Assembly: GCA_048941285.1 (NCBI GenBank)
Contig: JBHLNS010000066.1
Coordinates: 1-15,369, forward strand
DNA: 15,369 nucleotides
Source: Promethearchaeota archaeon
GTDB lineage: Archaea > Asgardarchaeota > Lokiarchaeia > Sigyniarchaeales > SOKP01
Direction: 5' to 3'
In this document: positions 1 to 14,668 of the stretch, piece after piece
Layout: every line of letters begins with the position of its first letter
Numbering within the stretch: position 1 is the stretch's first letter
Position numbers and translations under genes: made by a program
The notes under the pieces: generated by a model
The model's database searches: none
What the model saw: the letters and a program-made list of their open reading frames with translations, nothing else
What the model was told of the DNA's origin: nothing

Positions 1-52
1 AACCTTCTTCATCAATTTGATTTATATATTCTCTAAATCCCATTAATTTCAT
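1..52 (-). CDS. 5' end of a probable UbiD-family (prFMN-dependent) decarboxylase, likely trans-anhydromevalonate 5-phosphate decarboxylase; runs off the left edge
   Basis: Not in the ORF track. The reverse complement reads ATG AAA TTA ATG GGA TTT AGA GAA TAT ATA AAT CAA ATT GAT GAA GAA GGT = MKLMGFREYINQIDEEG (ATG at 52, or in-frame ATG at 43). This resembles the typical UbiD N-terminus (M-x-[FL]-R-E-[FY]-I-x-x-[LI]-x-x-x-G). It is co-oriented with HMG-CoA reductase and close to ubiX. Only 17 codons are visible. Confidence 0.6.
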   Translation of the reverse strand, partial: MKLMGFREYINQIDEEG

Positions 53-123
53 TCATCTCAAAAAGTTCTTTCCCATAATCTATTTAACAATTATTTTGAG
101 TTAAAGAAACAAATTTTATAAAA

Positions 124-1413
124 CTAAAGGTTTTCATTATTAGCTATTCTTTTTAAAATTTCTTTCGCATAGTCAACTCTAATTTTCTTATCTTCAACTA
201 ATTTCTTTGCTACTTTTTCTATCAACTCTTCAGGTACTCCTGCAAGTTTTGCAATATTCCTTGAGTGTAAAACCATATGACCTTCTTGGATTCCTTCTGA
301 AGCTAAGGCTCTTAAAGCAGCCACATTTTGAGCCAATCCAAGCGCTGCTGCTACTTGAGAAAGCTCATTGGCAGTTTTAACATTTAAAATTTTTAAAGCT
401 ATTCTAGCCATAGGATGTATTTTAGTCATCCCTCCAATAATTCCTAAAGCTAGAGGGACTTTTATTTCTCCTATTAAATTTCCATTAGAATCAATTTGAA
501 ATTTGGTTAATGGAGAATATTGTCCACTCATTGCAGCATATGCATGGGCTCCAGCTTCAATAGCGCGTGTGTCATTTCCTGTAGCCACTGTTAAAGCTAC
601 AATTCCATTCATTATTCCTTTATTGTGAGTTGTAGCTCTATAGGGATCAGCTAGCGCAAACTCATATGCATCTAAGATCCCTTCTACAACCTCTTCTCCA
701 CCCAATAATTTCTTATCAAAAGTCGCCATACTTTTAGCTATCCGATGAATCGCTAAATTGGATACAATTCTAAGATATACTTTCCCTCCAGATATTTCTT
801 CTATATATGGACTAATAGCTTCAGCCATGGTATTTACTACATTCGCTCCCATTGCATCTAAAACATCAACTAATAAATGAACAATCAACATTACTCCTTT
901 TCTCGTTGATAATTCTCGAATTTCAAAATCAAAAGCACCTCCACCTAATTCAACTAAGATTGGATCTTTCTCATTTGCGTATTTTAAAATAATCTCCTTA
1001 TTTTCTTCTAATTTCCTTTTAGTAAATTCAATATCTCTTACATTAGTTATTTGAATCTGAGATATCATTATTGATTTAACATCTTCAGAATGAAAACCTC
1101 CATGTTTTCTAGCCATTTTTGCAGCATTTGAGGCCGCTGCTACAACAGAAGGTTCTTCAATAACCATAGGGATTAAATAATCCTTATTGTTTACTTTAAA
1201 ATTACAAGCTAACCCAATTGGTAATTGAAAAGAACCAATTACATTCTCTATAAATGTGTCAATTTGAGTCTCTGAGAAGTATCCTAAATTATCTAGAAAT
1301 TTTATATCATTTTCGTTAAAATCAATAAGCTTAGATAATAGTTCTCTGCGCTTTTTTATTGATAAATTATAGAAACCAGAAATTTCAGAATTATATCCAC
1401 TCATGACGAACAA
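124..1413 (-). CDS. mvaA: 3-hydroxy-3-methylglutaryl-CoA reductase, class II (MvaA-like)
   Basis: Class II motifs ENVIG, PMVIEEPSVVAAASNAAK, DAMGANVVN, RATTHNKGIMNG, GNDTRAIEAG and GIQEGHMVLH (catalytic His). The ORF starts at TTG 1413; ATG at 1404 is a plausible true start. Confidence 0.96.
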   Translation of the reverse strand: MFVMSGYNSEISGFYNLSIKKRRELLSKLIDFNENDIKFLDNLGYFSETQIDTFIENVIGSFQLPIGLACNFKVNNKDYLIPMVIEEPSVVAAASNAAKMARKHGGFHSEDVKSIMISQIQITNVRDIEFTKRKLEENKEIILKYANEKDPILVELGGGAFDFEIRELSTRKGVMLIVHLLVDVLDAMGANVVNTMAEAISPYIEEISGGKVYLRIVSNLAIHRIAKSMATFDKKLLGGEEVVEGILDAYEFALADPYRATTHNKGIMNGIVALTVATGNDTRAIEAGAHAYAAMSGQYSPLTKFQIDSNGNLIGEIKVPLALGIIGGMTKIHPMARIALKILNVKTANELSQVAAALGLAQNVAALRALASEGIQEGHMVLHSRNIAKLAGVPEELIEKVAKKLVEDKKIRVDYAKEILKRIANNENL

Positions 1414-1540
1414 CCGATTTTATCCTAGAAAAGAATTATTTATTATAGAATTTTACATATAATGCAAAAAATAATTATTATTCCTTATTAATTAATACTT
1501 AAAAGAAATTTAATTTTACAATTAATTATTTGTCAGAAAT
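1414..1540. promoter_or_regulatory. Divergent promoter region between HMG-CoA reductase and ubiX
   Basis: 127-bp AT-rich gap between head-to-head genes; exact elements not assignable. Confidence 0.45.
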
Positions 1541-2089
1541 ATGTTTCTCATTGCCATAACCGGTGCCTCAGGTATTTCAATTGCAGTTAAATTATTAAAA
1601 GTCTTAAAAGAAAAAAATATTAAAACAGAATTAATTATATCTAAAGCAGCAGAAAAAGTCCTTTTAAGTGAATCAAGAATAAAAATTGCTGATCTGCAAC
1701 AATCAGCTACTATTTATTATGATGTTGATGATTTAACTGCCCCACCTGCTAGTGGATCATATAAAACTGATGGAATGATTATTGTTCCATGCACTATGAA
1801 AACTTTAGCAGCTATAGCTAACGGTTATTCTAAGAATTTAATTACGAGAGCTGCGGATATTACAATAAAAGAAAATCGTAAACTTATTCTTATTGTAAGA
1901 GAAAGTCCATTAAGTCCTATACATTTAGAGAATATGCTTAAATTAGCTCGATTAGGTGTTGTAATTGCCCCACCAGTTGCCTCTTATTATATTAACCCTG
2001 AATCAGTTGATGATCTTCTCAATCATACTGTAGGGAGAATTCTTGACCAAATTGGTATTGAAAGTGATATTAAAAGGTGGGGAGATTAA
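1541..2089 (+). CDS. ubiX: UbiX-family flavin prenyltransferase
   Basis: ITGASG, APPASGS, IVPCTMKTLAAIANG, ITRAAD and RESPLSPIHLENM motifs; 182 aa, typical UbiX length. Confidence 0.95.
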   Translation: MFLIAITGASGISIAVKLLKVLKEKNIKTELIISKAAEKVLLSESRIKIADLQQSATIYYDVDDLTAPPASGSYKTDGMIIVPCTMKTLAAIANGYSKNLITRAADITIKENRKLILIVRESPLSPIHLENMLKLARLGVVIAPPVASYYINPESVDDLLNHTVGRILDQIGIESDIKRWGD

Positions 2090-2165
2090 TAGGGGGAATA
2101 TATTAATTTCATAAGTTCAAGCACTTGTTTTTAAGTTTGAATATATATTATATAATTGTTTTTGT

Positions 2166-3080
2166 TTATGAAGTAAGACTATCTAGTATTTCTTCTATAT
2201 GATTAATCGCAGTGGATAAGTGAGCTTCGTTTGGATAAAACTTACCAATACAATTAGGAATGGCTTCACATACTAATCTTCCCATTCTAACAGGAACACT
2301 AGTATCTAACTCGCCATGCCATAGAAATACTTTTATACTTGATGGGATATCTTTCAAGTTAAATCCCCAATCTGAGCTTAATAATTTTATATCATGAGTG
2401 ACTCCATTGACTCCCTGACGAAAGGGTTCTGCCATTAATTCAACATATAATGGAATTCTATTAGGATCTATCATAATTTGTTTATCTGGTTCAGGTAAGT
2501 TTTTAGATCTTTTTTGAAAAGATTTTTCGAGTTCTTCCAGAGTTTTATCATTCATTTTCAAGATTTGCTTTTGAATAATCTTGTAAAACTTTGTTAAAAG
2601 ACCAGGTTTACTTCTTGCTAATTTAAGTTCCTTCTGCTTTCCTTTGTCCATCCCCTCTAAACCTAAAGTAAATGGACCAAGTCCAGAAACGATACCACAA
2701 TAAGTTAAGTGTTCAGGGATCTTTAGTGCACATGCTAACGCATATGCACATCCACCAGATCCTCCCAAAACAGCAAATTTTTGAATATTTAGATTGTTAG
2801 CTAACTCAGCAACATCATTAGGCCAATCTAAAATTGTTCTATTCTCTTTAAAATCTGATAAGCCTCTTCCAGGACGATCTATAGATATGAGCCGGATATT
2901 AAATTTTTTATCCTCAAAACCATACATTTTAGGTTCAAGCCGAGAAGAGCCATGACCGTGAAAATAAAATATTGGTTTCCCCTCAGGGATTCCGAATTCT
3001 GCATAACCTAGTTTGCGGCCATCCTTTAAAGTAATAATTTGGGAGTATTTTTCATTCTTTTGCATATTCTCACTTTCCAC
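2166..3080 (-). CDS. Alpha/beta-fold hydrolase
   Basis: LKDGRKLGYAEFG N-terminus, FHGHG oxyanion region, DRPGRGLSD, nucleophile elbow GGSGG, acid WHGELD and catalytic His in EAHLS. Start is GTG 3080 or ATG 3065. Confidence 0.92.
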   Translation of the reverse strand: MESENMQKNEKYSQIITLKDGRKLGYAEFGIPEGKPIFYFHGHGSSRLEPKMYGFEDKKFNIRLISIDRPGRGLSDFKENRTILDWPNDVAELANNLNIQKFAVLGGSGGCAYALACALKIPEHLTYCGIVSGLGPFTLGLEGMDKGKQKELKLARSKPGLLTKFYKIIQKQILKMNDKTLEELEKSFQKRSKNLPEPDKQIMIDPNRIPLYVELMAEPFRQGVNGVTHDIKLLSSDWGFNLKDIPSSIKVFLWHGELDTSVPVRMGRLVCEAIPNCIGKFYPNEAHLSTAINHIEEILDSLTS

Positions 3081-3199
3081 GAATATTAATTATTTTTTAC
3101 TTTTAGGATGAATTTCTCTCGCATTTATAAAATATAAAATTATTCTTTAATATATTATATCTTATTTTAGAGTATGTTTTCTCAATTTCGTTATTCTTG

Positions 3200-4876
3200 T
3201 TATAAAACAGGAGTGAATATGTCTGGGGATTGAGAATTTCTTTTTAATAAATATTTTTCTGGTATTGGTAAATAGATGGGACTCCAATTCAATAATCCTT
3301 TTGCATTTATATTTTCCTCATTTTCATTCTCAACTCTTCTGATTTCATACTCTAAAGCACTACCTATTTTTACATTACTAGCTACTCTTACTAAGCCTTC
3401 TTTTAGATATTTAAGATCGTTAGAATCAGTTTGAACTATAGGATCACTATCCAACTTCGCAAAGAGAGGGAAAAAACGTTTATGATATCCTGAATGTCCT
3501 TTAGGACAATGATCTAAACCTTTTATATTTGGGATAAGGCAACCCTCATCGCAAAAATGAAGTGTAAATCCTCTATTATTATTTTGCTCATGTTCAATAA
3601 TGTGCCCTAATAATATTTTTGGTTTTGAAGCTCCATTCTTTATTAATTCGTACTCTTTAACACTCTTTCTCTTTTTCAAATTTATAAAATCATTTATATG
3701 AGGGCCTTTTTCGACAATTTCACTAAATTCTTCTTGAACTTTTAATAGCCCAGAAATACAGGTTGCTCCCGAACCATAAGACCCAAAATAAATTGTATCA
3801 TTAACACGAGCTTGATTTTCAAGAAGATAAATAATCTGAGCCCATAAACTGGCATTATACATATTTCCAAAATGCATTGGAACGTTTAATTGAGGGAGCA
3901 TTCTTTCTTTTACATTAGTATTCACCCAATATGAAAATTTCTCCAAGGTTGGGGACGCAAATCCTCTTTCTTTTAGCTTCAAATAAAGATATTCTGGTAA
4001 TACGGTAACATCATGTAAAAAGTAATCAAGTTTCTTAAGTATGGAGGATCTAATATTTTTTCGATCAATTTTAGGCAGTTCATTTATATGTTTTACCCAA
4101 CGTTTAAGAATTATTTGTTGGAAACATTTCAATGGTAATTTAGAATATGGAGCATGAAATGTATAAAAATCAGCATGAAAATCTCCAATATTATTAATTA
4201 AATCATCATATGCTTCAAGCTGAAATTTGATATAGGCGTCTTGAGAGTAGTTACCAAAAGCTCTAGCATTCTTGTCATTAGGGGGTCTAAAAAAATCATT
4301 TACATTTCCCGAAACTTTTCCGAACTTTTTACTAAACGTAGCTATTCTAGGATTTTTCGAAATAACAAGGGCAATAGCCCCTGATCCTTGTGTAGGCTCT
4401 CCTGGAGATCCAATGTGATATGATGAGATGTCAGTACTTATAATAAGTGCTTTATTTATTATTTCTTTTTCAATCAAGGCAATTGCATTGAGAATTGCCA
4501 ATGTTCCACCGGCACAAGCATTATAGATATCCTGTGTGAGACTATTTGGCGATATTTCAAGCATTTCAGCGAAAATATTCGAAACAGATTTTGCAGCATA
4601 TACTTCTGTTTCAGTACCAACAAAAAGGGCATTTATACTTTTATGAGAGATACCTCCTCTTAATAAAGCATTATATCCAGCTTTTAATCCAAGAGAAATG
4701 ATATCTTCATCAATATCAGCTACTCGCATTTCTTTTGAGATTAAGCCCTTTTTATATTTCTCTGGATCAACTTGTCTCTTTCGGGCAAGCTCTTCTAATT
4801 TGACATAATGTCTTGGAGCATGAAAGCCAATAGAGTCAATTCCAATGTTCGAAAATAGATAATCGTTAGAAAGCAT
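3200..4876 (-). CDS. mvaS: Hydroxymethylglutaryl-CoA synthase with C-terminal DUF35-like (Zn-ribbon/OB-fold) extension
   Basis: Catalytic E89 (VGTETE), C121 (NACAGGT) and H241 (FHAPYSK), plus GEPTQGSGA, DFFRP, GNMYNAS and SYGSGA. About 140 extra C-terminal aa contain C442-x3-C446-x10-C457-x3-H461. Confidence 0.92.
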   Translation of the reverse strand: MLSNDYLFSNIGIDSIGFHAPRHYVKLEELARKRQVDPEKYKKGLISKEMRVADIDEDIISLGLKAGYNALLRGGISHKSINALFVGTETEVYAAKSVSNIFAEMLEISPNSLTQDIYNACAGGTLAILNAIALIEKEIINKALIISTDISSYHIGSPGEPTQGSGAIALVISKNPRIATFSKKFGKVSGNVNDFFRPPNDKNARAFGNYSQDAYIKFQLEAYDDLINNIGDFHADFYTFHAPYSKLPLKCFQQIILKRWVKHINELPKIDRKNIRSSILKKLDYFLHDVTVLPEYLYLKLKERGFASPTLEKFSYWVNTNVKERMLPQLNVPMHFGNMYNASLWAQIIYLLENQARVNDTIYFGSYGSGATCISGLLKVQEEFSEIVEKGPHINDFINLKKRKSVKEYELIKNGASKPKILLGHIIEHEQNNNRGFTLHFCDEGCLIPNIKGLDHCPKGHSGYHKRFFPLFAKLDSDPIVQTDSNDLKYLKEGLVRVASNVKIGSALEYEIRRVENENEENINAKGLLNWSPIYLPIPEKYLLKRNSQSPDIFTPVL

Positions 4877-5283
4877 TAACCAGGTCCCGTGAAATGTTAA
4901 ATTTCCTTTTTTCCAATGAAAAACTAAATAATTTAATGTAATATTTATTTGTTCAAAAACTTATCTAAATAAATATTAATCTTATTAAAAGAAATGCTTA
5001 TTTAAAAATTCTCAGTGGTCTAATATTCGTAATAGTTCAAATTCTTATAAGTGGTATATATTATGAATAATATTACTAATTGTTTAAAAACAATAAAAAC
5101 GTGAAATATATAATTGGATTTTCCATATAGGGAAAAAACCACAGAGGGTTAATTATAAATAAGCAAATTTCGTTAGATATGGGGGTAAATCATAATCAAT
5201 CATAAAAAAAATTTTTAGATAAAATTAATAATTCTAGTATTTAATATTAATATTGAAAATAATACAACTTTATAATAGTGTAG
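4877..5283. promoter_or_regulatory. Divergent promoter region between HMG-CoA synthase and uppS
   Basis: 407-bp very AT-rich non-coding gap between divergent starts. Several TATA-like words are present, but none can be assigned uniquely. Confidence 0.5.
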
Positions 5284-6021
5284 ATGGCAACTCAATTAGA
5301 AGAATTAAAACTGAAAGCAAGAGATAAGCTTCCTAAACATGTAGGTTTAATTGTTGATGGAAATAGAAGATGGGCTTCAAAGAGAAATCTTGATGTTAAT
5401 TTTGGGCATTTAGTCGGATATGAAAACCTAAAAAAAAGATTATTTGATTTTTTTGATGTCGGGATCCATTATTTAAGCCTGTATATATTGTCCCTTGAAA
5501 ATGTGAAGAAACGAAGTGATGAAGAGCTTGAATATATTTATAAAATTATGGTTAAAGCTGTTGATACAGTTATTAATGAATCAATTGTAAAAGAAGAAAA
5601 AGTAAAGTTTAATGTTATAGGCAGAATTTCAATGCTACCTCCGAAAGCAAGAGCAAAAATTCAAGAGTTGATTGATTTTACTAAAAATCACAATCAAAAT
5701 TTCATAAATCTATGCATAATGTATGATGGTCATGAGGAAATTGTTGATGCAGTGAAATCAATAATCAAAGATGCTGTAGATCCAGAAGATGTCGATGTTG
5801 ATTTAATTAAGAAATATCTCTATACCAAAAATTTCCCTCCCTTAGACTATATTATCAGAACTGGAATGGATGACGGAGCTAGACTTTCAGGATTTTTATT
5901 ATGGGATTCTTCTTACGCTGAATTTAAATTTCGGGAAGATTTATGGCCTGATTATAATATGGAGATGGTAATTGAAGATTTACAAGACTATGTAAGGAGA
6001 AATCGAAGAATGGGAAAATAA
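5284..6021 (+). CDS. uppS: Cis-prenyltransferase (polyprenyl/undecaprenyl diphosphate synthase)
   Basis: PKHVGLIVDGNRRWA P-loop, GH..GY, LSLEN, DYIIRTG...RLSGFLLWDSSYAEF and C-terminal RxG (RRMGK). Confidence 0.95.
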   Translation: MATQLEELKLKARDKLPKHVGLIVDGNRRWASKRNLDVNFGHLVGYENLKKRLFDFFDVGIHYLSLYILSLENVKKRSDEELEYIYKIMVKAVDTVINESIVKEEKVKFNVIGRISMLPPKARAKIQELIDFTKNHNQNFINLCIMYDGHEEIVDAVKSIIKDAVDPEDVDVDLIKKYLYTKNFPPLDYIIRTGMDDGARLSGFLLWDSSYAEFKFREDLWPDYNMEMVIEDLQDYVRRNRRMGK

Positions 6022-6142
6022 ACTTCATTCCTTTTTACTACGTAAAACTAAATAGTTAATCCATTATTAATTATTAAACCTAAAAATTAATGAGAAATTT
6101 TGATTTAGTAATTAATAAAGTGAACTAAAAAATCTTTAAATT

Positions 6143-7996
6143 ATGTTAAATGCAGACAAAATCATCTCTTTAAATATAACAAAATTCCCGCAAAATCTAC
6201 TGATTAGTGGTATAGACAACGAGGTTGTTCTTCAAGCAGTTAATACCTCAAACAAAAAGGAAACATTTAAATTCGATTTTGAGGGAGAAAGTTTAAATAT
6301 TCTTGTACAACCTGAAATATTTAACAATAATATAGAATTTGGTCCAGGAGAGACAAAAGAGATAATATTAAAGTTAGAGCCAATTAGTGATGGTTTTGGT
6401 AAACTAATTATTATTATAAATTGGCTAAAAATTACTGAATATAAGGTGAAAGTACAAAAAGTTAGAGATGTCGTTCCAGTTAGTAAAATGAACGCAATTC
6501 TAAAAACCTATGTTTTTACAAGTACAGAAGACTTTGAAATTTTTAATCCGGAAGATTATATCGTCAATATGGATCAAAATGCTATAAAAAAGACAGTGCA
6601 GCAAATAGAAAATTTTAAAGAAGAACTTAATTCAGCACAATCTATCGGCTCACCAACTTCTCAACTTCTTGAAAAAATTGATACTTATATAAAACAAATA
6701 GCAAAAGGTTATCTCTCAATTAATAATCCTGATAAAGCTCTAGAGTATGCTTTAATGCTATTTAACAAAACTGATCAAAATGATTTGTATATAAATCTAA
6801 TCAGAGCATATGCTTCAAAAGATTTTAATCAAACAGTCCAAATAGTTCGAAATTTACAAGATTTAGAGCTTCAAGAAAAGATTTTAAAATTTTTGACTTT
6901 AGATCAAGTTTCTATTAATCCTGAACAAGCAATTAGAATAGGATCCTTACTTCAAAATAATTCTATCAAAGAAGATCTTTTTATCAATATATTTATTAAA
7001 GTTATTGAATCTGATCCATTATTAGCTCTAAAATTAGCAAACCTAATTGATAATGGTTTTTTAAAGACAAGAATTTTGTTCAATATCGCAAAACGGTTAT
7101 ATGGTCAAGAGGGCCGATCTGAAGTTATTAATGTTTTTAATATGATCATCCAAACAAGTCTTAACTCTTATATTAATAATATAAATGATAAAAAACTAAG
7201 AAAAAAATCTTATGAGTATGTAAAAGATGGTATTCATGCTCTTGCTGAATACAATAGCCCTACCGCAGCTCATTCTATTATTGAAAGTATGAATAATCAA
7301 GAGCTTAAAGAGAAATTGACAAAAAACTTGTTTGATATTATCTATGAAATAGGAGATGAAATTCAAACTAAAATAGACGCTACCCCCATTTTTTCTCAGT
7401 ATTTTTTATTGAATACGTATATTTCACTAATTAATAGGGAAATTACAAATTTTTGTTTAAATGGTGGAAATATAAGCAATAATATTCTCGTAAATGATTA
7501 CAATTTTACAATAGCATTCTTATCCTTATTTAGTTTTGACTTTAGCATTTTTCCAATATTAGATCGTGTATATCACGATTTAAAGCATTCAATAAATAAA
7601 TCAATTGCATACTATGTTTTTCCATCAAAGGAGAAATATAATCAAAATGAATTGAACACACTTAAGCTTTCGTTAAAACAATTTTTTAAAAATCTCAACA
7701 GTGCCCCAAACCAAATATTAATTTTTAATTTGGATTTCATCCCATATTTAGGAAAACCAACGATAATAATTTCCTCTGAAGATGATTTAGGAGATAATTT
7801 TTATTCAAAAATTAAAAAAGTTGGAGAAGCTATTAATTTGATAATTGACGAATCTGTTTTTAAAGGAGGGAAAATCACTGATGAACTTGCGCAGATATTT
7901 CCAACACCTAAATTTAAAATTATCAATTTGGTCTTATCTTATGAATTTATCAACGATTATAATGTTTTTAAAACTTTCATCCAATCTTTACTTTAA
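6143..7996 (+). CDS. Hypothetical protein: N-terminal Ig-like beta-sandwich, central 32-aa alpha-helical repeats, C-terminal alpha/beta region
   Basis: 617-aa ORF. The N-terminal beta-strand pattern includes 'V.N...KETF.F...IEFGPGETKEIILKLEP..DGFGKL'. Four exact-period 32-aa helical repeats start at residue 195. No catalytic motif recognised. Confidence 0.8.
   Translation: MLNADKIISLNITKFPQNLLISGIDNEVVLQAVNTSNKKETFKFDFEGESLNILVQPEIFNNNIEFGPGETKEIILKLEPISDGFGKLIIIINWLKITEYKVKVQKVRDVVPVSKMNAILKTYVFTSTEDFEIFNPEDYIVNMDQNAIKKTVQQIENFKEELNSAQSIGSPTSQLLEKIDTYIKQIAKGYLSINNPDKALEYALMLFNKTDQNDLYINLIRAYASKDFNQTVQIVRNLQDLELQEKILKFLTLDQVSINPEQAIRIGSLLQNNSIKEDLFINIFIKVIESDPLLALKLANLIDNGFLKTRILFNIAKRLYGQEGRSEVINVFNMIIQTSLNSYINNINDKKLRKKSYEYVKDGIHALAEYNSPTAAHSIIESMNNQELKEKLTKNLFDIIYEIGDEIQTKIDATPIFSQYFLLNTYISLINREITNFCLNGGNISNNILVNDYNFTIAFLSLFSFDFSIFPILDRVYHDLKHSINKSIAYYVFPSKEKYNQNELNTLKLSLKQFFKNLNSAPNQILIFNLDFIPYLGKPTIIISSEDDLGDNFYSKIKKVGEAINLIIDESVFKGGKITDELAQIFPTPKFKIINLVLSYEFINDYNVFKTFIQSLL
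6725..7108 (+). repeat. Four tandem 32-aa helical (alpha-solenoid/TPR-like) protein repeats
   Basis: NPDKALEYALMLFNKTDQNDLYINLIRAYASK / DFNQTVQIVRNLQDLELQEKILKFLTLDQVSI / NPEQAIRIGSLLQNNSIKEDLFINIFIKVIES / DPLLALKLANLIDNGFLKTRILFNIAKRLYGQ. Each unit is 32 aa with an aligned [ND]-P-x-x-A start (degenerate in unit 2) and aligned hydrophobic positions. Confidence 0.7.
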
Positions 7997-8111
7997 ACAA
8001 AAGAAAATTATCCAAAATTATAAAATCAAAATTTTTTATATATATTTTAAAAATAAGAATATATCTTTAAATTAGAAAATAGTGTAAAGCAAATCAAAAG
8101 GGACAGCTTTT

Positions 8112-9782
8112 ATGGCAAAAGATAAAAAAAAGAAGCAAAAGAAAGAGAAAAAGAAGAAGCAAAAATCTGGGCAGAGCGCAGATATGTTTTCTCAGCTATA
8201 CGCTAAAAAAGGTAAAGGAACAGCACCTAGTGTTTCATTTGGAAACAGTATTGATAGGTCTGGCGATAAATTATTTCTAGGGTCAGATTATCGAGAAGTA
8301 TACATTCCAGAAAGATCATGGGCAGAAATGCTTGCTGATACTGAACATTGGACCGCCTTACCATTCACACATGGTATTGAAATGGAATTAATAATAGCAG
8401 ATGATAATGGAGATTATCCTCCTGGAGAAGAAATGGTCTTTAGAATGAAAGAAATTGTAAAAGATGCCATTAAAATCATGGATGAGGTATTATTTGAAGG
8501 AAGAAGTGATTTTCTTCCTGTGCCAGATTATATCAGGCAAAAAGTATTGGCTCGACCTTGGGGAAGAGATGATCTTGAAAAGGGATATGCAATGAATATT
8601 CGCTATGCTCTTGGCGATGGATCTGTAGATATTGATACATTTGCGAGAGATGGAAATGTTACAGCAATAACATATATTTTAGAGCTCGTTACTCCACCAT
8701 GTATATATATTGAAGAGCTAGCATTCTGGGCAAGTACATTGTTCTTGTTAGCAAAAGCTACATTACCAAAAGATTTACATATCATTGCTTCTGCTATAAA
8801 TCCGGCCACTAGTGAATATATGAGGGGCGTTTCACAAGCGGACCACAGTCACATAGGTACTTTCGAATCAGAGTTAGAAAAAATTCAAGCTTATTGTATG
8901 ATTCGTAATTTTATACCACATATAATTGCTCTTACATGCAATTCACCAATTCTAAACAATAAACCTACAGACGTTGTAAAAATTATAAATAATAGAATCA
9001 CAGCACCTAATTGTGTAAGATCATTACGACTAAAATATAATACAACCATGTTAAGTAATAACGATCCTACTCATTTCATTCCATATTTAACTTCATCAGA
9101 TCAAAATTCACAAAACTACTTTCTCCAAATCGTGCAAAAAGCTAGTTTAGAGGATGGCCGTTTTCAAGATGTATTTCCTTTTACAGATTGGGGTACAATA
9201 GAAGTGCGGATAAGTGATGCACAAATTTCTATTTGTCGCCGAATAGGTATTGCCCTTTTAATACAAGCTATGTGTTATAAAGCCAGGAAATTACTTAAAC
9301 ATGGTGTTTGGGTTCCTGATGCAGGAAGCAATACCATTGCGCCTAATCGTCAAAGTGCTATAGATCGTGGTTTAATTTCTTTGTTTCGCCCCGCTTCAGA
9401 TCTCACTCGAGAAAAGTTAGCTCAGTATGATTCTGAATTTGCTAAACAGTATCTGGGTCCAAAAGATCAACCAGTACGCTACATGATGCAAGCAGTTCAA
9501 AGAATGTTTTTCTATTTAAAAGATGAATTAAAAGAACTAGGATTTTTATATTCTCCATTTATGAAACCTATATTGCAATCTGTTTTTGGGAGTGTAAGTT
9601 ATGCTGAGCCACCTATAACAGAAGCTGAATATCAACTTTCGCTTTATGACTATAAATTGAAAAATGGAGAAAATCCAAGCATTTTATATGATTTAATATA
9701 TTTTACAATTCAATATTGTCAAGATCCTTTGAATAATCCACTAACAGGAGTTTTAACACTTCCAAAAGAAATGAGAGATTAG
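8112..9782 (+). CDS. Glutamate--cysteine ligase family 2 (GCS2/YbdK-like) carboxylate-amine ligase
   Basis: GS-fold ligase motifs FTHGIEMELIIAD (ExE), LELVTPP, HSHIG (HxH), IIALTCNSP, RSLR and DVFPFTDWGTIEVRISDAQ (cf. YbdK WDIRP..FGTVEVRVMD). AGGGA lies 8 nt upstream of the ATG. Confidence 0.85.
   Translation: MAKDKKKKQKKEKKKKQKSGQSADMFSQLYAKKGKGTAPSVSFGNSIDRSGDKLFLGSDYREVYIPERSWAEMLADTEHWTALPFTHGIEMELIIADDNGDYPPGEEMVFRMKEIVKDAIKIMDEVLFEGRSDFLPVPDYIRQKVLARPWGRDDLEKGYAMNIRYALGDGSVDIDTFARDGNVTAITYILELVTPPCIYIEELAFWASTLFLLAKATLPKDLHIIASAINPATSEYMRGVSQADHSHIGTFESELEKIQAYCMIRNFIPHIIALTCNSPILNNKPTDVVKIINNRITAPNCVRSLRLKYNTTMLSNNDPTHFIPYLTSSDQNSQNYFLQIVQKASLEDGRFQDVFPFTDWGTIEVRISDAQISICRRIGIALLIQAMCYKARKLLKHGVWVPDAGSNTIAPNRQSAIDRGLISLFRPASDLTREKLAQYDSEFAKQYLGPKDQPVRYMMQAVQRMFFYLKDELKELGFLYSPFMKPILQSVFGSVSYAEPPITEAEYQLSLYDYKLKNGENPSILYDLIYFTIQYCQDPLNNPLTGVLTLPKEMRD
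8118..8165 (+). repeat. Imperfect 24-bp tandem duplication encoding K[D/E]KKKKQK x2
   Basis: aaagataaaaaaaagaagcaaaag (8118-8141) and aaagagaaaaagaagaagcaaaaa (8142-8165). Confidence 0.65.
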
Positions 9783-9813
9783 TTACCATTAAAAAAAACA
9801 AGGGGATAAGTTA

Positions 9814-11361
9814 ATGTTAACATGTACTATAGAGCAAGACGGAAAAGAGAGAATAGAACATCTACTTGTAATTGATGCTCATTCCCATCTTGGCCAAGAC
9901 GTAGATGGGGCAACTATGATGAATCCTTTGGCTCCAGGAGTAGGAACATTTGATTTCTGGGGTAATGTACAAGGTAGAATAAAAGCTGAATGGGAGAAAA
10001 CTGGAGAACAGTCTTTTACAACAACTATGGATGGAAAATTCACTAAAATTTCTTGGTCGTTTACTCCTTTTCCTTTCACAAACCATCTTTATAGCGAATT
10101 AGAAAAATTGGGGAAAAAATTCTCTGATTTAAAAGAAAAATCAAAGTTTTATTCTTTCATAGATATGGGGGTATGTTTCCCTTTCCAAGATGTTTTTAGA
10201 GATAAGATGTCAGAAGCTTTATATAGAGCAAGCAATATTAATGTTTCCCGTTTTACAACTCGATTTCCATTTTCTATGAAATTAATAGGGTATGGCCGTT
10301 GCGATCCAATGGAAGGCTCAAAAGCTGTAAATGAAGTGAAATATATAAGAGAGACACTGGGACTTCGAGGTTTAAAATTGCATCCAAGGTCAGAAGGATA
10401 TATTGATAAAATGACCTCTGAAAAGGTGATAAATGTTCTGGTTGAAGCCGCGAGTTATTCATTGCCTGTTATTTTTGATACACGAGGTCGGGGATCAATC
10501 TTGGAAATTGGGAAACTAATAAGAGCTGCTCGAAATATAATCCAATCAAATTTTTCAGATTTATTATCTCATTTTAAAGTGATAATTGCCCATTTTGCTC
10601 AAGGTAACATTGATGATTATGAAGTATATAGTACAGTCGTCCAACCAAACACATATGGCGATCTTTCAATGTTACATGGTGCGGGTGCAGGGAATTTTTT
10701 TGAAAGTTTTAGAAAATGGTTTCAATCTAATAACAAAAAGAGTGTGGATAATCGAGATTGGTCAGAATACCTTCTTTTTGCGACAGATTACCCCTATTTT
10801 GGTGATGCCCATGCTCAGAAATTGATGAAATATATTATTAATAAACAATTCTTCGATTCTGGGGGTACAGTTGCAGATATTAGAAATATAATTGGATTAA
10901 ATCAGTTAAGAATTTTACCTGAGTATAATACACCTCAAAATCAGAAAGAAAGTAAATCTGTACCCAGTATAATAGTTTCAAATCCCAATTTTCATCAGAA
11001 TAAGGTAAGTGCTTATGATACATCTATAATGGCTTTAGCAAGGTTAATCGTAGAAAATAAAATCGATATTAAAAAGTTATGTATACAATTTAAGGATACA
11101 TGGGATTTTTTGAGTGAAAATGTGTTATTGACTATCTTATCAAATAATACAAAAGAAGAAAGAAATCTGCTATTAATGAACTTAGTGAAAGATAAAGTGG
11201 CTCTTTTTGCTCCATTACATTCAGCCATCGATTGGAAAAGATTTGGATATAGTTACTTTAATCCTGAAGATCGCGCTTTTTTTGCTTCAGTTTTTAAGCA
11301 GAATTATTTAGTCACTGATATTAAAAAGACAGTAGATACTTTTTCGCATGTATATACTTAA
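9814..11361 (+). CDS. Amidohydrolase-superfamily (Amidohydro_2-like TIM barrel) metallohydrolase with C-terminal extension
   Basis: IDAHSHLG (HxH), GLRGLKLHP, IIAHF and LLFATDYPY motifs. Starts 31 nt after the ligase stop, with AGGGGA upstream. Confidence 0.88.
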   Translation: MLTCTIEQDGKERIEHLLVIDAHSHLGQDVDGATMMNPLAPGVGTFDFWGNVQGRIKAEWEKTGEQSFTTTMDGKFTKISWSFTPFPFTNHLYSELEKLGKKFSDLKEKSKFYSFIDMGVCFPFQDVFRDKMSEALYRASNINVSRFTTRFPFSMKLIGYGRCDPMEGSKAVNEVKYIRETLGLRGLKLHPRSEGYIDKMTSEKVINVLVEAASYSLPVIFDTRGRGSILEIGKLIRAARNIIQSNFSDLLSHFKVIIAHFAQGNIDDYEVYSTVVQPNTYGDLSMLHGAGAGNFFESFRKWFQSNNKKSVDNRDWSEYLLFATDYPYFGDAHAQKLMKYIINKQFFDSGGTVADIRNIIGLNQLRILPEYNTPQNQKESKSVPSIIVSNPNFHQNKVSAYDTSIMALARLIVENKIDIKKLCIQFKDTWDFLSENVLLTILSNNTKEERNLLLMNLVKDKVALFAPLHSAIDWKRFGYSYFNPEDRAFFASVFKQNYLVTDIKKTVDTFSHVYT

Positions 11362-11405
11362 ATTATAAATGGTTATAATCTAATTAATATTAGAGCAAAT
11401 AATAT

Positions 11406-11439
11406 AATTGTGTAGCGCCTACATAATTTATTTCTTTTT
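11406..11439 (+). terminator. Stem-loop followed by T-tract; putative terminator or palindromic operator
   Basis: AATTGTGTAG-CGC-CTACATAATT (10-bp stem, one G.U pair) at 11406-11428, then TATTTCTTTTT at 11429-11439, lying 45 nt after the amidohydrolase stop. Confidence 0.45.
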
Positions 11440-11450
11440 AGGGATAAAAC

Positions 11451-12497
11451 TTGAAAGGAATTGTAATTTTAAATCTGGATAAAAAATCAGATTTAATTAA
11501 GGATATTGAATACCCGCAGGATATCTGTGAAAAATTAGGAGTAACAGAATCAATGCTTGCGACTGTCTTCGAAGAACATAAGAGAGTTAGGACAGGTCCT
11601 AATTATCTAGAAATGCAGATAAAGCGTGATATTAGTGTAGCTAGTTTTTTTACTGGGCATTCTTCCAAACATTTTATTGGGAAGGGAGATCATGTAATTA
11701 CAGTGTTCCTTTCTGATGAAGATATACTTCCAAATAATTTTGAGGGTCAAGTAAGAAGATTCGCTTTTGAATTATTACCTAAAAGAATGGAAAAAAAATT
11801 TAATGAACTATTTTCAAAATCTTACGAGTTGTTAGAGAAAGGAGAACTTGATGCCTATTGGCAGGAAAGACAAGAATTTGAACAAGAAATTGTAGAAAAA
11901 AAGGACAAGATTGAGGATCTAGCTCATAAAGTATCTTTGTTAGTTTCTGATAGAACCGAACATTTAAAGAACGTAGAAGCCTTAAAGGATGAAGTATCTG
12001 GTTTGTATTTAAAATTAGAAAATTGGAGTAGCCAAATGGCAGATATAAATGAACATAACGCCTCATTAACATCAAAAAATAGAGAATTAACTAGATTATT
12101 AAATGTACAAACATTGGCATTAAACCAAAAAGACGAACGAATTAATAATTTAAAAGCAAAATTAGGTGATACAGATGAAATTGAAAAAGGTGCTGAAAAA
12201 TTACTTATTGAAATTAAAAAAATTAAGATGGAAAATGATAACTTGAATAAACAAATTGAAAATTTAAATGAAATTAATAAGAAATTAAAATTTGAGGCAT
12301 TAAAAGCAAAAAGGGAAAGTGATTCAGTTCCAGATTTAGAAAGCGAAATTAAAAAATTGAATAATAAAATTCTAGGTTTAAATAATGAAAAAGAAAATAT
12401 AGCACGTGAATTAAAAGATTTGAAGGAAGAAATAAATCTTCTCCGGCAAGAACGAGATAAATATTACAGAATTATAAAAGAAAAGAATCTTATTTAA
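11451..12497 (+). CDS. Hypothetical protein: N-terminal longin/uDENN-like alpha/beta domain plus about 200-aa coiled coil
   Basis: TTG start with AGGGA 6 nt upstream. The N-terminus follows a beta-beta-alpha-beta-beta-beta-alpha pattern (GIVILNLDKKSD-LIKDIEYP...ISVASFFTG...HVITVFLSDED...FEGQVRRFAFELL). Residues ~140-345 are heptad-rich in E/K/L/N. The CDS itself is secure; the fold call is an inference. Confidence 0.7.
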   Translation: MKGIVILNLDKKSDLIKDIEYPQDICEKLGVTESMLATVFEEHKRVRTGPNYLEMQIKRDISVASFFTGHSSKHFIGKGDHVITVFLSDEDILPNNFEGQVRRFAFELLPKRMEKKFNELFSKSYELLEKGELDAYWQERQEFEQEIVEKKDKIEDLAHKVSLLVSDRTEHLKNVEALKDEVSGLYLKLENWSSQMADINEHNASLTSKNRELTRLLNVQTLALNQKDERINNLKAKLGDTDEIEKGAEKLLIEIKKIKMENDNLNKQIENLNEINKKLKFEALKAKRESDSVPDLESEIKKLNNKILGLNNEKENIARELKDLKEEINLLRQERDKYYRIIKEKNLI

Positions 12498-12524
12498 CTA
12501 GATTTATGGAATAGAAGTAAAAAT

Positions 12525-13367
12525 TCAAGAATTATCGATATAATACTTTTTTATAAAGTTCATATTCATCAGAACTGCCTCTCGAGTTGATAATTCTCCA
12601 TGTCCTGGTACATAAGTCTCAATATCTTTTTCCACAATTGAATTCAAAATTTCATATAATTTAAGTGGATCGAGTGCATTAAACCTAGCAGTTTCAGTTG
12701 GTGCCCAACTCTCGTCCAAATCAGCAAAGAGTAAATCTCCCATAAAGCAGATTTTCTCATTTGGAAAATAAGCGATAATATCAGATTCTGTATGACCACC
12801 TCCAAAAGGAATCAAATGAACACGCTTTTTAGTTCCATTTATTAGCAACTTTTCTTTAATCAAAAAATCTGGCAATCTTATTTTAAAATTTGGATCTTTA
12901 ACATATTTATAAAATTCCAAATCATTACAAATTTCAACTTCACCCCATGGACCATCGTTAGATTTTAACATTTCCTCACGCCTTAGTATTTCTTGATCTG
13001 CAATTTCCCTTTGATGCTCCAGCTGATCAAATCCTGTTTCTCTAATCTTTTCCAATGTAAGATGATTGCTTATGATGGGGATGTTCTCTGGGAAAATACA
13101 ATTTCCGAATATGTGATCAGTATGGTAATGGCTATTAATAATAAATGAGGGATCCTTATCATAAAATTTTTTGATTGCCTTATATAAATCACGAGCAGCA
13201 CCTGGATGTAAATAAGTATCAAAAACGATTATATGATTTCCTAAATCGAAGAATCCGGCACTTTCACTCACTCCCGAATCATTTCTGGACATTGCAGCAT
13301 AAATTCCTTCTGTTAGTTCAAAAAGATTAAAATAAGTTGATTCAAAGTCAATTTTTTTATGATTCAT
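12525..13367 (-). CDS. MBL-fold metallo-hydrolase (cyclase-like group)
   Basis: VFDT, SHYHTDH (HxHxDH), GGHTESD, FMGDLLF and VPGHG motifs. Confidence 0.93.
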   Translation of the reverse strand: MNHKKIDFESTYFNLFELTEGIYAAMSRNDSGVSESAGFFDLGNHIIVFDTYLHPGAARDLYKAIKKFYDKDPSFIINSHYHTDHIFGNCIFPENIPIISNHLTLEKIRETGFDQLEHQREIADQEILRREEMLKSNDGPWGEVEICNDLEFYKYVKDPNFKIRLPDFLIKEKLLINGTKKRVHLIPFGGGHTESDIIAYFPNEKICFMGDLLFADLDESWAPTETARFNALDPLKLYEILNSIVEKDIETYVPGHGELSTREAVLMNMNFIKKYYIDNS

Positions 13368-13544
13368 TTTTTATTTCATTACCAGATATTAAAATAGGTT
13401 GACTAAATGATAAAATGTAATAAATTTATTTATAGATTAATTTAATAAACTTCATATGAACTTTTCATTGGATTTGAACTATTTAATTCTGATTTAGAAA
13501 ATGAATGAAAAAACGCAACGTTTACTAAAAAAATTAAAGCATAA

Positions 13545-14492
13545 TTATGATTTTTTTAATAACTCGGCAAGGAAATTAAGATTCCATTCTAAAATTGGAC
13601 TATCAAAGGATTGCAACTCTTCTGAAAAATCCTCTCTTTTTAGTTGGGTCGGATCTTCTCCCGCTTCAATACGGTTCTTGACTAGTTCAAGAATTTCTTT
13701 AATATATTTATTTTCTAAGGAAAATTGTTCTTTTGATGCTAATCTACCGTGTCCTGGTACCACAACTTTAAAGTCAAATGACATGATTTCCTCATTCACT
13801 GAAAGCCATCCTCTAGGATCTCCTGATCCCAACCAAGGATCGATCCGGGCAAATAAGAGATCTCCAGCAAATAATACTTTTTCTTCTGGGATAAATATAG
13901 TTACGTCTCCATCGGTATGAGCTTTTTTAAAAGTGCGTAATTGAACCGATTCTCCTTTTCCATATATGACACATCCTTCTTTAAAGGTAAGTTTGGGTTC
14001 TCGTATAAAAAATCCGTCTGAACGAACAGTTCTAAGAAATTTAAGATCATTTTCAATATCTTTCTTCTTTATTTCATCTGTTTCCCTTTCAAGTGATTGT
14101 TCCATTTCTGTTAAATCAATCTTCTTAAATTCTTCAATTCTTTTCCTATTCTCTATTTGAATATTTTTAAGAGTGCGATCAGATGTCATCATTTGAATGG
14201 ATTTGTCGAATAAAGATGTACCCATAAGATGATCCATATGATAATGAGTAATCACGATAAAATTAGGATTTTTTTGTGTGTATTGAATAGCTGCTTCTTT
14301 TAAATCTTTAGCAGCGTCCGCATCACCAGTAGTGTCGATTATTATCAAATAATCCTCAATGTCAATAAAACCTGCATTTCCCCCCATACCTGAATTTTCT
14401 TTACCAATCGCCCCATAAGCACTTTGTGAGAGTTTATACAGATCAAAGAATTCTGATTCAAAATCTAACTTTTTTACTAAATCAAATGACAT
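13545..14492 (-). CDS. MBL-fold metallo-hydrolase (cyclase-like group), paralog of 12525..13367
   Basis: GGNAGFID, IIDT, THYHMDH, AHTDGD, FAGDLLF and VPGHG motifs. Confidence 0.93.
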   Translation of the reverse strand: MSFDLVKKLDFESEFFDLYKLSQSAYGAIGKENSGMGGNAGFIDIEDYLIIIDTTGDADAAKDLKEAAIQYTQKNPNFIVITHYHMDHLMGTSLFDKSIQMMTSDRTLKNIQIENRKRIEEFKKIDLTEMEQSLERETDEIKKKDIENDLKFLRTVRSDGFFIREPKLTFKEGCVIYGKGESVQLRTFKKAHTDGDVTIFIPEEKVLFAGDLLFARIDPWLGSGDPRGWLSVNEEIMSFDFKVVVPGHGRLASKEQFSLENKYIKEILELVKNRIEAGEDPTQLKREDFSEELQSFDSPILEWNLNFLAELLKKS

Positions 14493-14668
14493 AAACTTTT
14501 TTGGTAAATACCATTGAAAAACTTTTGTGATTTTTCTTGTTTAAATCTTCAAATCGTAGCTAGATTTCTGATATTAATGTTATAAATAATCAAGATGATA
14601 ATGTATTATATTTAAATATTTGAATGGCGATAAATAAGTTAAAATCTTTCATAAAAAGGGAAAATCTA

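Follow-up and report, generated by a model that had tools for sequence, protein, structure and literature searches.

Archaeal membrane lipids depend on the mevalonate pathway, in which the endergonic thiolase reaction is normally drawn forward by its complex with HMG-CoA synthase (HMGCS), held together by DUF35. Canonical DUF35 proteins combine a rubredoxin-like zinc ribbon, built on four cysteines in two CxxC pairs, with a C-terminal OB-fold barrel. C-terminal HMGCS–DUF35 fusion is already known in bacteria: a DUF35 homologue is fused to the HMGCS C-terminus in Streptomyces albus DSM 41398 (PMC11522927, citing Vogeli 2018). An inactive HMGS–DUF35 fusion has been documented in Pseudomonas (PMC12960953). 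In addition, the polyketide HMGS VirC carries a C-terminal subdomain of mixed alpha/beta structure, about 20–47 residues long and free of a metal site, that is said to prevent complex formation (PMC11522927).

The window analysed here, 15,369 nucleotides of a Promethearchaeota archaeon (GCA_048941285.1, contig JBHLNS010000066.1, positions 1 to 15,369, forward strand), encodes a 558-aa HMG-CoA synthase with a C-terminal tail (3200..4876 from the ORF list and its translation, with the stop codon at 3200–3202; minus strand, as for all features given below). The protein resembles the archaeal thiolase/HMGCS/DUF35 complex (PDB: 6esq) in serving the same pathway step and in placing a probable metal knuckle before a predicted beta-barrel; its tail follows the motif order of the 6esq DUF35 up to the C-terminal x-P and has 6esq as its top structural match. 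Unlike the DUF35 of that complex, however, the module in the window is fused to the synthase, is invisible to Pfam and carries Cx3C...Cx3H ligands rather than four cysteines, and unlike the synthase of that complex its core is long and MvaS-like instead of short and archaeal in type, while a separate canonical DUF35 is still present in the genome. With the S. albus protein, compared by description only, it shares the domain order of synthase followed by a DUF35-like module and the mevalonate context, but that fusion is bacterial, whereas the window protein is archaeal and its tail is too diverged for family models. The initial annotation had seen in this locus a different architecture for the pathway, which is overstated because the C-terminal fusion is reported for Streptomyces albus (PMC11522927). 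PfACAT/HMGS-DUF35 from Pseudomonas fluorescens and related “minimal” loci (PMC12960953) likewise joins an HMGS-fold domain to DUF35; in contrast to it, the window protein keeps its catalytic tetrad, has a diverged tail and lies next to no thiolase. VirC, also set beside the tail by description only, has its add-on to the HMGS fold at the place where DUF35 binds, yet the window tail is longer and has a probable metal site.

The synthase identity of the gene is clear from Pfam, where PF01154 (77.1 bits, cut-off 25) and PF08540 (45.4 bits, cut-off 25.1) both exceed their gathering scores. TIGR01835, 1tvz and Foldseek matches delimit an MvaS-like catalytic core at residues 10–412 (3641..4849), and the core end at about residue 412 in the TIGR01835 and phmmer alignments agrees with the earlier estimate of about 415. 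TIGR01835 is the best HMGCS model, aligning residues 11–412 with 222.8 bits, yet it stays under its equivalog cut-off of 360.35. The canonical archaeal HMGCS models also score under their cut-offs (NF003274, 179.8 bits against 244; TIGR00748, 142.5 bits against 353.35) and align only the N-terminal half of the protein; the canonical chain has about 350 aa. The closest likeness is to bacterial MvaS (S. aureus 1TVZ/1XPL, E. faecalis 1X9E), the core's best match in sequence and fold, with identical catalytic residues: phmmer gives 1tvz, S. aureus MvaS, as the best PDB sequence match (7.2e-44), and Foldseek with the full-length model gives 1xpl_A (6.2e-31). That Foldseek search returned synthase-fold chains only and no solved chain spanning core and tail. 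MvaS ends at about residue 388 without a tail; the window protein differs from it in the tail and in a helical insert at residues 257–333 (3878..4108), seen as a gap in the 1tvz alignment and as helices in the AF2 model (pLDDT below 50 at residues 270–284), which is about 55 aa longer than the matching MvaS stretch.

The phmmer alignment to 1tvz, from which the MvaS numbering is derived, pairs Glu89 (4610..4612), Cys121 (4514..4516) and His241 (4154..4156) with Glu79, Cys111 and His233, which we take to be the catalytic residues of S. aureus MvaS; the three codons were checked, and the report of an intact E89/C121/H241 set is borne out. Asn338 (3863..3865) lies in a GNMYNAS motif aligned to GNIYTGS of MvaS and provides the fourth member of the Glu-Cys-His-Asn tetrad named for HMGS in PMC12960953. 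All four residues are invariant across 33 aligned homologues, and elsewhere in the genome TIGR00748 matches just one ORF, a FabH-like one with 35.6 bits. On these sequence grounds the window gene is the genome's only real HMGCS, and its product is very probably a catalytically active synthase.

The tail is not peculiar to this genome. Of 41 genomes sampled from the window's order, 37 carry it, and none of 123 genomes from 25 other Asgard families does. Canonical HMGCS passes its cut-off in 101 of 151 genomes, and no tail-bearing family is represented among these; the other Asgard families score about 1e-160 with the canonical archaeal model and keep the canonical HMGCS–thiolase–DUF35 operon, the trio being contiguous in 15 of 20 canonical loci. 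A long MvaS-like synthase of bacterial or eukaryotic style would thus appear to have displaced the short archaeal synthase of this operon in one Lokiarchaeial order. Two members of the order without a tail match, G029 and G039 (98–99% complete), contain only a catalytically dead HMGS–DUF35 fusion; a tail-less active synthase was considered for them and dropped for this reason, and their active gene is probably unassembled, since nothing but the dead fusion is seen. A 480-aa ORF at locus L147 of the order is of this inactive HMGS–DUF35 type, with a thiolase downstream. The initial annotation placed inactive fusions in haloarchaea, where we found none; those we can place are in Pseudomonas (PMC12960953) and in the window's own order.

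The C-terminal tail, delimited by homologues and AF2, spans residues 416–558 (3203..3631), with its conserved part at about 420–540; the span 3200–3571 singled out previously corresponds to residues 436–558 plus the stop codon. The sequence strings quoted at that time are exact, both FTLHF-C442-DEG-C446-(10 residues)-C457-PKG-H461 and NVKIGSALEYEIRRVENENEENINAKGLLNWSPIYLP at residues 501–537. At E<=1e-3, 239 proteins match the tail. Conservation of its Cys/His residues in orthologs, on which the earlier proposal depended, was confirmed: C442, C446, C457 and H461 are invariant in 111/111 full-length homologues among the 120 matches listed, and among 10 divergent representatives (tail identity 24–52%) the three cysteines are kept in 10 and the histidine in 9. 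In two divergent homologues the first knuckle reads CxxC. These invariant ligands, together with the hhalign alignment described below, make C442-x3-C446-x10-C457-x3-H461 (3494..3553) a probable Cys3His metal site. It is followed by a beta-barrel-like (OB-like) part at residues 465–537 (3266..3484), ending in G-L-L-N-W-x-P-x-Y. AF2 of the tail alone gives nine beta strands at a mean pLDDT of 82.9; in the full-length model (pTM 0.88) the tail blocks reach 80–94 and the tail is predicted to pack against the synthase core. A tail-only word-indexed search for free-standing relatives among proteins of 78–251 aa found 18, including P0132 (154 aa, 4 contigs), all apparent pieces of the fused gene. 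We consider it very likely, from the pattern of conservation, that the tail is a conserved, metal-binding structural domain. It has no name in current family libraries, and a literature search, whose coverage left out most subscription journals, found no description of it.

Whether this domain is a DUF35 domain was approached by several routes. Foldseek, profile–profile comparison and the nearest language-model cluster all hint at the DUF35 kinship proposed in the initial annotation, while Pfam and HMMER do not. Pfam found no family in the tail at E<=10 and no DUF35 at E<=1 in 17 divergent relatives of it; PF12172 and PF01796 scans of the whole genome matched other contigs and not the window gene; and an HMMER search of 1.84 billion proteins with a tail profile gave 32 matches, all fused forms or fragments, with no DUF35 among them. 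On the structural side, the best 10 PDB matches in Foldseek are all DUF35 chains (6esq, 6ok1, 7pyt, 7pxp, 6htj; best E 7.5e-3), and a second look with VIA gave DUF35 for 8/8 entries shown, with Z values to DUF35 chains of 2.3–2.9. The AF2 tail consists of beta structure throughout, six of its strands lying beyond the metal site, and its nearest ESM-Atlas cluster is PF01796/PF12172 (0.77). In hhalign, comparison with 16 canonical Asgard DUF35s yields P=6.4e-4 over 91 co-linear columns that cover the ligand positions as well as the final OB strands and run through the C-terminal x-P motif, where C446, C457 and H461 fall at or next to zinc cysteines two, three and four of canonical DUF35; the tool's own runs against canonical Asgard DUF35s give P=0.0084 and P=0.019. 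Among 129 profiles with shuffled columns 1 reaches the observed score, and among 129 with shuffled blocks 2 do. When the tail HMM is run over the 258 ORFs of 20 canonical loci, DUF35 proteins occupy ranks 1–6, compared with 0–3 DUF35s in the top 6 for 20 shuffled tail HMMs. Against the genome's own five DUF35 proteins, hhalign gives a probability of 0.1–0.35% with and without close homologues, and the tail HMM ranks the genome's own DUF35 proteins 374–1484 of 2150 scored ORFs.

Taking these lines together, we regard the tail as probably a true, very diverged DUF35 homologue of the zinc-ribbon/OB type. A rather unlikely alternative is that it is a new, lineage-specific Cys3His beta domain whose echo of DUF35 arose by convergence. 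Each single similarity score lies under the usual thresholds, the best Z in an unbiased structure search belongs to an unrelated phage fibre, shuffled controls reach the profile score once or twice in 129, and the ligands differ from DUF35 in type and spacing (Cx3C...Cx3H in place of the four-Cys CxxC...CxxC), all of which would fit convergence. Nevertheless, four methods of different kinds agree on DUF35, co-linearity of the alignment extends from the metal ligands as far as the C-terminal x-P motif, and DUF35 is a known partner of HMGCS that is also known as its C-terminal fusion (PMC11522927). Convergence concerns the origin of the tail and would be compatible with its acting only in cis or binding a partner other than thiolase.

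The genome retains the other components of the archaeal system. It has six stand-alone DUF35-like genes, five of which adjoin thiolase-fold genes, which does not support reading the fusion as a replacement for a missing stand-alone DUF35. One pair, on contig C64, is conserved and orthologous to the canonical thiolase–DUF35 pair of the mevalonate pathway, with 6esq chains as best PDB matches for both thiolase (1.1e-73) and DUF35 (6.9e-13). Of the order's 41 genomes, 39 have the C64-type thiolase, and its Cys92, H316-D-C-F319 motif and H366 are invariant in 25 sequences; the archaeal complex needs HDxF to produce HMG-CoA (PMC12960953). The genome also encodes three classical thiolases whose cysteines are intact (C30, C90b and C64b). 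Next to the synthase, the usual neighbour is a class II HMG-CoA reductase (in the window at 124..1413; TIGR00532, 456.9 bits, over cut-off), which 76 of 80 related loci carry at a distance of no more than 8 kb and which is also present at 14 of 20 loci from the order's other families. Genes for thiolase or DUF35 are absent from the ±8 kb around the tail-type synthase in all 80 close loci; a thiolase adjoins it in 1 of the 20 loci from the order's other families, where a contig end cuts one further locus, and in 1 of 100 loci overall. In one complete genome the tail-type synthase is divergent to a thiolase–DUF35 pair 423 bp away.

We propose that this gene provides the organism with its working HMG-CoA synthase, with a long MvaS-like core and, packed on it at the C-terminus, a domain of about 125 residues in which a Cys3His knuckle precedes a small beta-barrel, most likely a very diverged DUF35-type zinc-ribbon/OB module. 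The tail would serve as a built-in scaffold joining the synthase to the retained canonical-type acetoacetyl-CoA thiolase, which we infer to be that of C64. Formation of HMG-CoA and the endergonic thiolase reaction would remain coupled in this way, as they are in the Methanothermococcus complex. We put the probability of this overall explanation at roughly 40%; the coupling of thiolase through the tail is itself tentative, at somewhat short of even odds. Counting against a scaffold, thiolase and DUF35 genes are rarely found near the synthase, the C64 thiolase has its own conserved stand-alone DUF35, which leaves no obvious need for another module of this kind, and the three classical thiolases could supply acetoacetyl-CoA without a complex. 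Prediction of a complex between tail and C64 thiolase, in runs without controls, gave scores of 0.00 and 0.00 (mark, 0.32) and is weighed on neither side. It seems improbable, though conceivable, that displacement was possible only through a re-invented DUF35-type adaptor plugging the foreign synthase into the ancestral thiolase–DUF35 module, so that each protomer of the resulting channelling complex would hold two DUF35-type elements.

The tail, DUF35-derived or not, might instead act in cis only, capping, stabilising or shaping the oligomer on the surface where a free DUF35 binds, in which case the protein would be a free-standing MvaS-like synthase outside any thiolase complex. This rather doubtful possibility draws on the full-length pTM of 0.88 and the tail's higher predicted confidence in full-length context than alone, on the lack of thiolase linkage in 99 of 100 loci and on the classical thiolases. 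However, a purely structural cap is rarely near-invariant over about 120 residues across an order, the three genes do stand together in one genome, and the retained canonical-type thiolase keeps the HDxF motif, which is tied to the shared CoA site (PMC12960953). More unlikely still is that the tail binds something other than thiolase, be it an acyl-CoA or CoA ligand, a regulator, nucleic acid or, in one variant, HMG-CoA reductase for hand-over of HMG-CoA. The frequent proximity of the reductase gene would suit that variant, but neighbouring pathway genes need not bind one another, and we know of no HMGCS–HMGR complex mediated by a DUF35-like domain. For the remaining partners, acyl-CoA binding has been proposed for DUF35 members (SSO2064; PMC2954200), and the DUF35 member Trf (6htj), among the tail's structural matches, acts in translation recovery (PMC6996347).

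Taken together, the scaffold reading and its alternatives bear on how an Asgard order changed its synthase and kept the thiolase–DUF35 pair. If the tail acts only in cis, these archaea would have given up channelling, and what drives acetoacetyl-CoA formation would be a question again. If the tail is an adaptor, it would exemplify the replacement of a single enzyme within an obligate channelling complex, and would offer a compact, self-scaffolded synthase for pathway engineering. Should displacement indeed have proceeded through such an adaptor, it would reveal an evolutionary route by which a metabolic complex that is obligate can swap one of its enzymes, here among the cultured relatives of the ancestor of eukaryotes.

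The HMG-CoA synthase of the window is encoded by a single ORF of 558 aa on the minus strand (3200–4876). Pfam places PF01154 at residues 10–174 and PF08540 at residues 208–403, with no match past residue 403. The best-fitting NCBIfam model is bacterial MvaS (TIGR01835; 222.8 bits over residues 11–412, below its cut-off), and both archaeal HMGCS models score lower and align with the first half of the protein only. By sequence, the nearest solved structure is that of S. aureus MvaS (1tvz, 7.2e-44), compared with 7.5e-33 for the Methanothermococcus enzyme in the 6ESQ complex. The 1tvz alignment pairs E89/C121/H241 with Glu79/Cys111/His233 of MvaS, and these residues, together with N338, are unvaried across 33 homologues with identities down to 35%, which bears out the initial annotation's view of an intact active site. 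The core differs from MvaS in an extra helical insert of ~55 residues (257–333), partly modelled at low confidence. A genome-wide scan revealed no second real HMG-CoA synthase, the sole other match to the archaeal HMGCS model being a FabH-like ORF on contig C17 (35.6 bits). Because its catalytic residues are conserved and the scan contains no second real synthase, the window enzyme is, judged by sequence, catalytically intact and the sole synthase visible in this 94%-complete genome.

Beyond the core, residues 416–558 match no Pfam family, even with the threshold relaxed to E ≤ 10. The tail strings quoted in the initial annotation are present exactly, and the coordinates it gives span residues 436–558. 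A search with residues 400–558 alone retrieved 239 proteins at E ≤ 1e-3; the 120 matches listed are all either fused proteins of this length class or pieces of such proteins, and C442, C446, C457 and H461, like many other tail positions, are unvaried in the 111 full-length homologues among them. Likewise, a HMMER tail profile run against 1.84 billion representatives matched only 32 proteins, each of them a fused form or a fragment. Across ten divergent full-length homologues, tail identity is 24–52% (core 36–62%), the three cysteines are kept in 10/10 and the histidine in 9/10, and a classical CxxC occurs at the first pair in two. This conserved tail has a probable metal site. AlphaFold2 models the tail alone confidently as an all-beta domain of nine strands (pLDDT 82.9), and since the tail scores 80–94 in the full-length model (pTM 0.88), the modelling suggests that it is packed onto the core, not tethered.

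Is this domain DUF35, as the initial annotation proposed? Judged by the tests that define the family, it cannot be counted as a member. Pfam finds no DUF35 match in the tail or in the 17 scanned of the 32 HMMER representatives, those 32 include no DUF35 protein, hhalign of the tail against the genome's own DUF35 proteins is null, and Foldseek returns no PDB match at E ≤ 0.001. Structure and profile comparisons point the other way. The Foldseek top ten are all DUF35 chains, led by 6esq_F (E=7.5e-3) and followed by 6ok1, 7pyt, 7pxp and 6htj, with MCM zinc/OB domains ranking behind them; a second structure comparison gave DUF35 for 8/8 entries shown, and a wide structure search for 6/18 rows. The closest ESM-Atlas cluster is PF01796/PF12172, at a score of 0.77 that counts as a lead only. 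When a 25-sequence tail alignment was compared by hhalign with a profile of 16 DUF35 proteins (this genome's protein on contig C64 and 15 encoded in the canonical mevalonate operons of Asgard families other than its own), the match reached P=6.4e-4 over 91 columns; with alignments A3 and A2, P was 0.0084 and 0.019. The alignment is co-linear, with C446, C457 and H461 at, or next to, the positions of zinc cysteines two, three and four, NVKIGSALEYEIRR opposite DIKIGMRVEMAFRK, and GLLNWSPIYLP opposite AFIRYGYKFRP, so that the sequence echo originally claimed for the C-terminus is recovered. The observed score was reached by 1/129 column-shuffled and 2/129 block-shuffled DUF35 profiles (empirical P ~0.01–0.02), and a reversed profile scored 16.6 versus 31.4 observed. 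Applied to 258 ORFs from 20 canonical loci, the tail HMM ranked DUF35 proteins 1–6 (best E 0.019), in effect one comparison because these proteins are orthologues; 20 shuffled tail HMMs placed 0–3 DUF35s among the top six. We consider the tail probably a remote DUF35 homologue, and it is too diverged for family libraries. That it is unrelated to DUF35, whatever its function, is the less likely reading.

A thiolase/synthase complex held by DUF35 is established (6ESQ/6ET9; PMC11522927, PMC12960953), and fusions are on record: a DUF35 homologue is C-terminally fused to HMGCS in Streptomyces albus (PMC11522927, citing Vogeli 2018), and inactive HMGS-DUF35 fusions of Pseudomonas have been assayed (PMC12960953). 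The latter "dead HMGS-DUF35 plus thiolase" type is the arrangement at locus L147, where a 480-aa HMGS-like protein without the catalytic Glu or Cys continues into a canonical CxxC...CxxC DUF35 in one fused chain (1495–2937, plus strand), with a Cys-bearing thiolase downstream (2952–3584, plus strand). The type occurs in many genomes of the order; none was found in the window's genome at E ≤ 1e-30. In two other Asgard families the canonical archaeal HMGCS is itself extended to 506 aa (L128:4959–6479, plus strand; L138:4992–6512, minus strand), the extension being a recognisable DUF35 in the former (tblastn E=4e-16) and matched by a custom DUF35 HMM in the latter. Full-text literature searches returned no description of the tail, and synthase architecture is not discussed in a survey of mevalonate genes in archaea published in 2024 (PMC11052028). 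The tail-type synthase is a real, clade-wide variation on the known fusions of synthase and DUF35-type module, with a putatively active MvaS-like core.

Altogether, 106 species-representative genomes have the tail. Almost all are labelled Promethearchaeota or Promethearchaeia, and some bear submitter labels of Hermod-, Hod-, Thor- or Odinarchaeota. A contig titled "Candidatus Nanopelagicaceae bacterium" (L069) carries it at 66% identity; mis-binning or mislabelling of an Asgard contig is the probable cause. Among 151 sampled genomes of the phylum it was found in 26, including 23/25 of its own family and 2/2 of a second, and in none of 123 genomes from 25 other families; within the order it is present in 37/41, with all four families represented. 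Two tail-negative genomes of the order show only the dead HMGS-DUF35 fusion adjoining a thiolase, and since they are 98–99% complete, their active synthase is probably unassembled. The canonical archaeal synthase exceeds its cut-off in 101/151 genomes and in none of the tail-bearing families of that sample; the gene order HMGCS-thiolase-DUF35 holds in 15/20 loci of other families.

Asgard genomes often contain thiolase/DUF35 pairs, with a mean of 3.8 per genome (preprint 10.1101/2024.07.05.601840). The possibility raised at the outset, that this genome lacks a stand-alone DUF35 beside a thiolase, did not hold: six DUF35 genes were found, five of them adjoining thiolase-fold genes. Pfam models recover five stand-alone genes (one on C64, three on C58, one on C92) and the custom HMM a sixth on C1; the C92 gene adjoins a 558-aa gene taken, on inspection of its sequence, to be methylmalonyl-CoA-mutase-like. 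Among archaeal-type thiolases only that on C64 keeps the nucleophile cysteine, which is lost in three on C58, in C90a and on C1; three classical thiolases (C30, C90b, C64b) have it intact. Both C64 proteins find their best PDB match in 6ESQ (thiolase, 1.1e-73; DUF35, 6.9e-13). The C64-type thiolase is present in 39/41 sampled genomes of the order, and Cys92, H316-D-C-F319 and H366 are unvaried in 25 sequences; the archaeal complex reportedly cannot form HMG-CoA without the HDxF motif (PMC12960953). The C58 cluster (4709–8131 and 16986–19107) comprises three DUF35 and three thiolase-fold genes, all the latter lacking the nucleophile, and lies beside a small ORF and a gene resembling acyl-CoA dehydrogenases; instead of thiolases, it may encode a module of aldolase or acyltransferase type. 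At C90:1330–3939, an archaeal-type thiolase-fold gene with Pro replacing the nucleophile, without a DUF35 neighbour, directly adjoins a classical thiolase; many genomes of the order contain homologues that share ~40% identity with the C64 thiolase.

Neighbouring genes were surveyed within ±8 kb of the synthase in 80 closely related loci, some of which end at contig ends. The synthase is accompanied by HMG-CoA reductase in 76, by cis-prenyltransferase in 61 (window 5284–6021, plus) and by UbiX-type flavin prenyltransferase in 35 (1541–2089, plus), the last presumably acting for the UbiD-type decarboxylase in the archaeal version of the mevalonate pathway. The reductase (124–1413, minus) is a class II "NAD/degradative" enzyme (TIGR00532, 456.9 bits), whose homologues adjoin the tail-type synthase across the order at 43–62% identity; at L135, from a different Asgard family, the gene directly after the canonical HMGCS-thiolase-DUF35 trio is a homologue with 54% identity. 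Three plus-strand ORFs without a solid Pfam family follow, of 617 aa (6143–7996; 54/80 loci), 556 aa (8112–9782; 47/80, with a sub-threshold GCS2 match) and 515 aa (9814–11361; 30/80), as do minus-strand tandem metallo-beta-lactamase-fold paralogues of 280 and 315 aa (12525–13367, 13545–14492). No thiolase or DUF35 lies near the synthase in any of the 80 loci (tblastn E ≤ 1e-10, with the genome's nine thiolase-fold and four DUF35 proteins as queries). Twenty more loci, taken from the order's other families, include one in which DUF35 and thiolase are divergent from a synthase-with-tail across 423 bp; one more locus of that genus ends at a contig end. The linked copy lies in a complete genome (G032) with two tail-type paralogues, the other sitting with reductase and other mevalonate genes; G016 and G038 also have two. 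Loci L148 (8297–9919), L149 (6434–8137) and L165 belong to this set of paralogue-bearing genomes.

What the tail does can be read in several ways. It may act purely in cis, as has been described for the C-terminal subdomain of VirC, which occupies the DUF35 site (PMC11522927); the predicted packing onto the core is compatible with this main rival, the thiolase-linked locus less so, and we hold it to be somewhat improbable. Service to another partner, for instance the reductase found in 76 of 80 loci, or to a ligand, appears more doubtful still. We favour, tentatively (probability about 0.4), a diverged DUF35 module that would couple the new synthase to the retained canonical-type thiolase. In the genomes sampled, the tail is confined to the order, the canonical synthase exceeds its cut-off in none of the tail-bearing families and the C64-type pair is kept; therefore, the tail-type enzyme has taken the place of the canonical synthase in this order, while the thiolase-DUF35 pair survives at another site in the genome, and the diverged tail may be what keeps the new synthase coupled to the C64-type thiolase.
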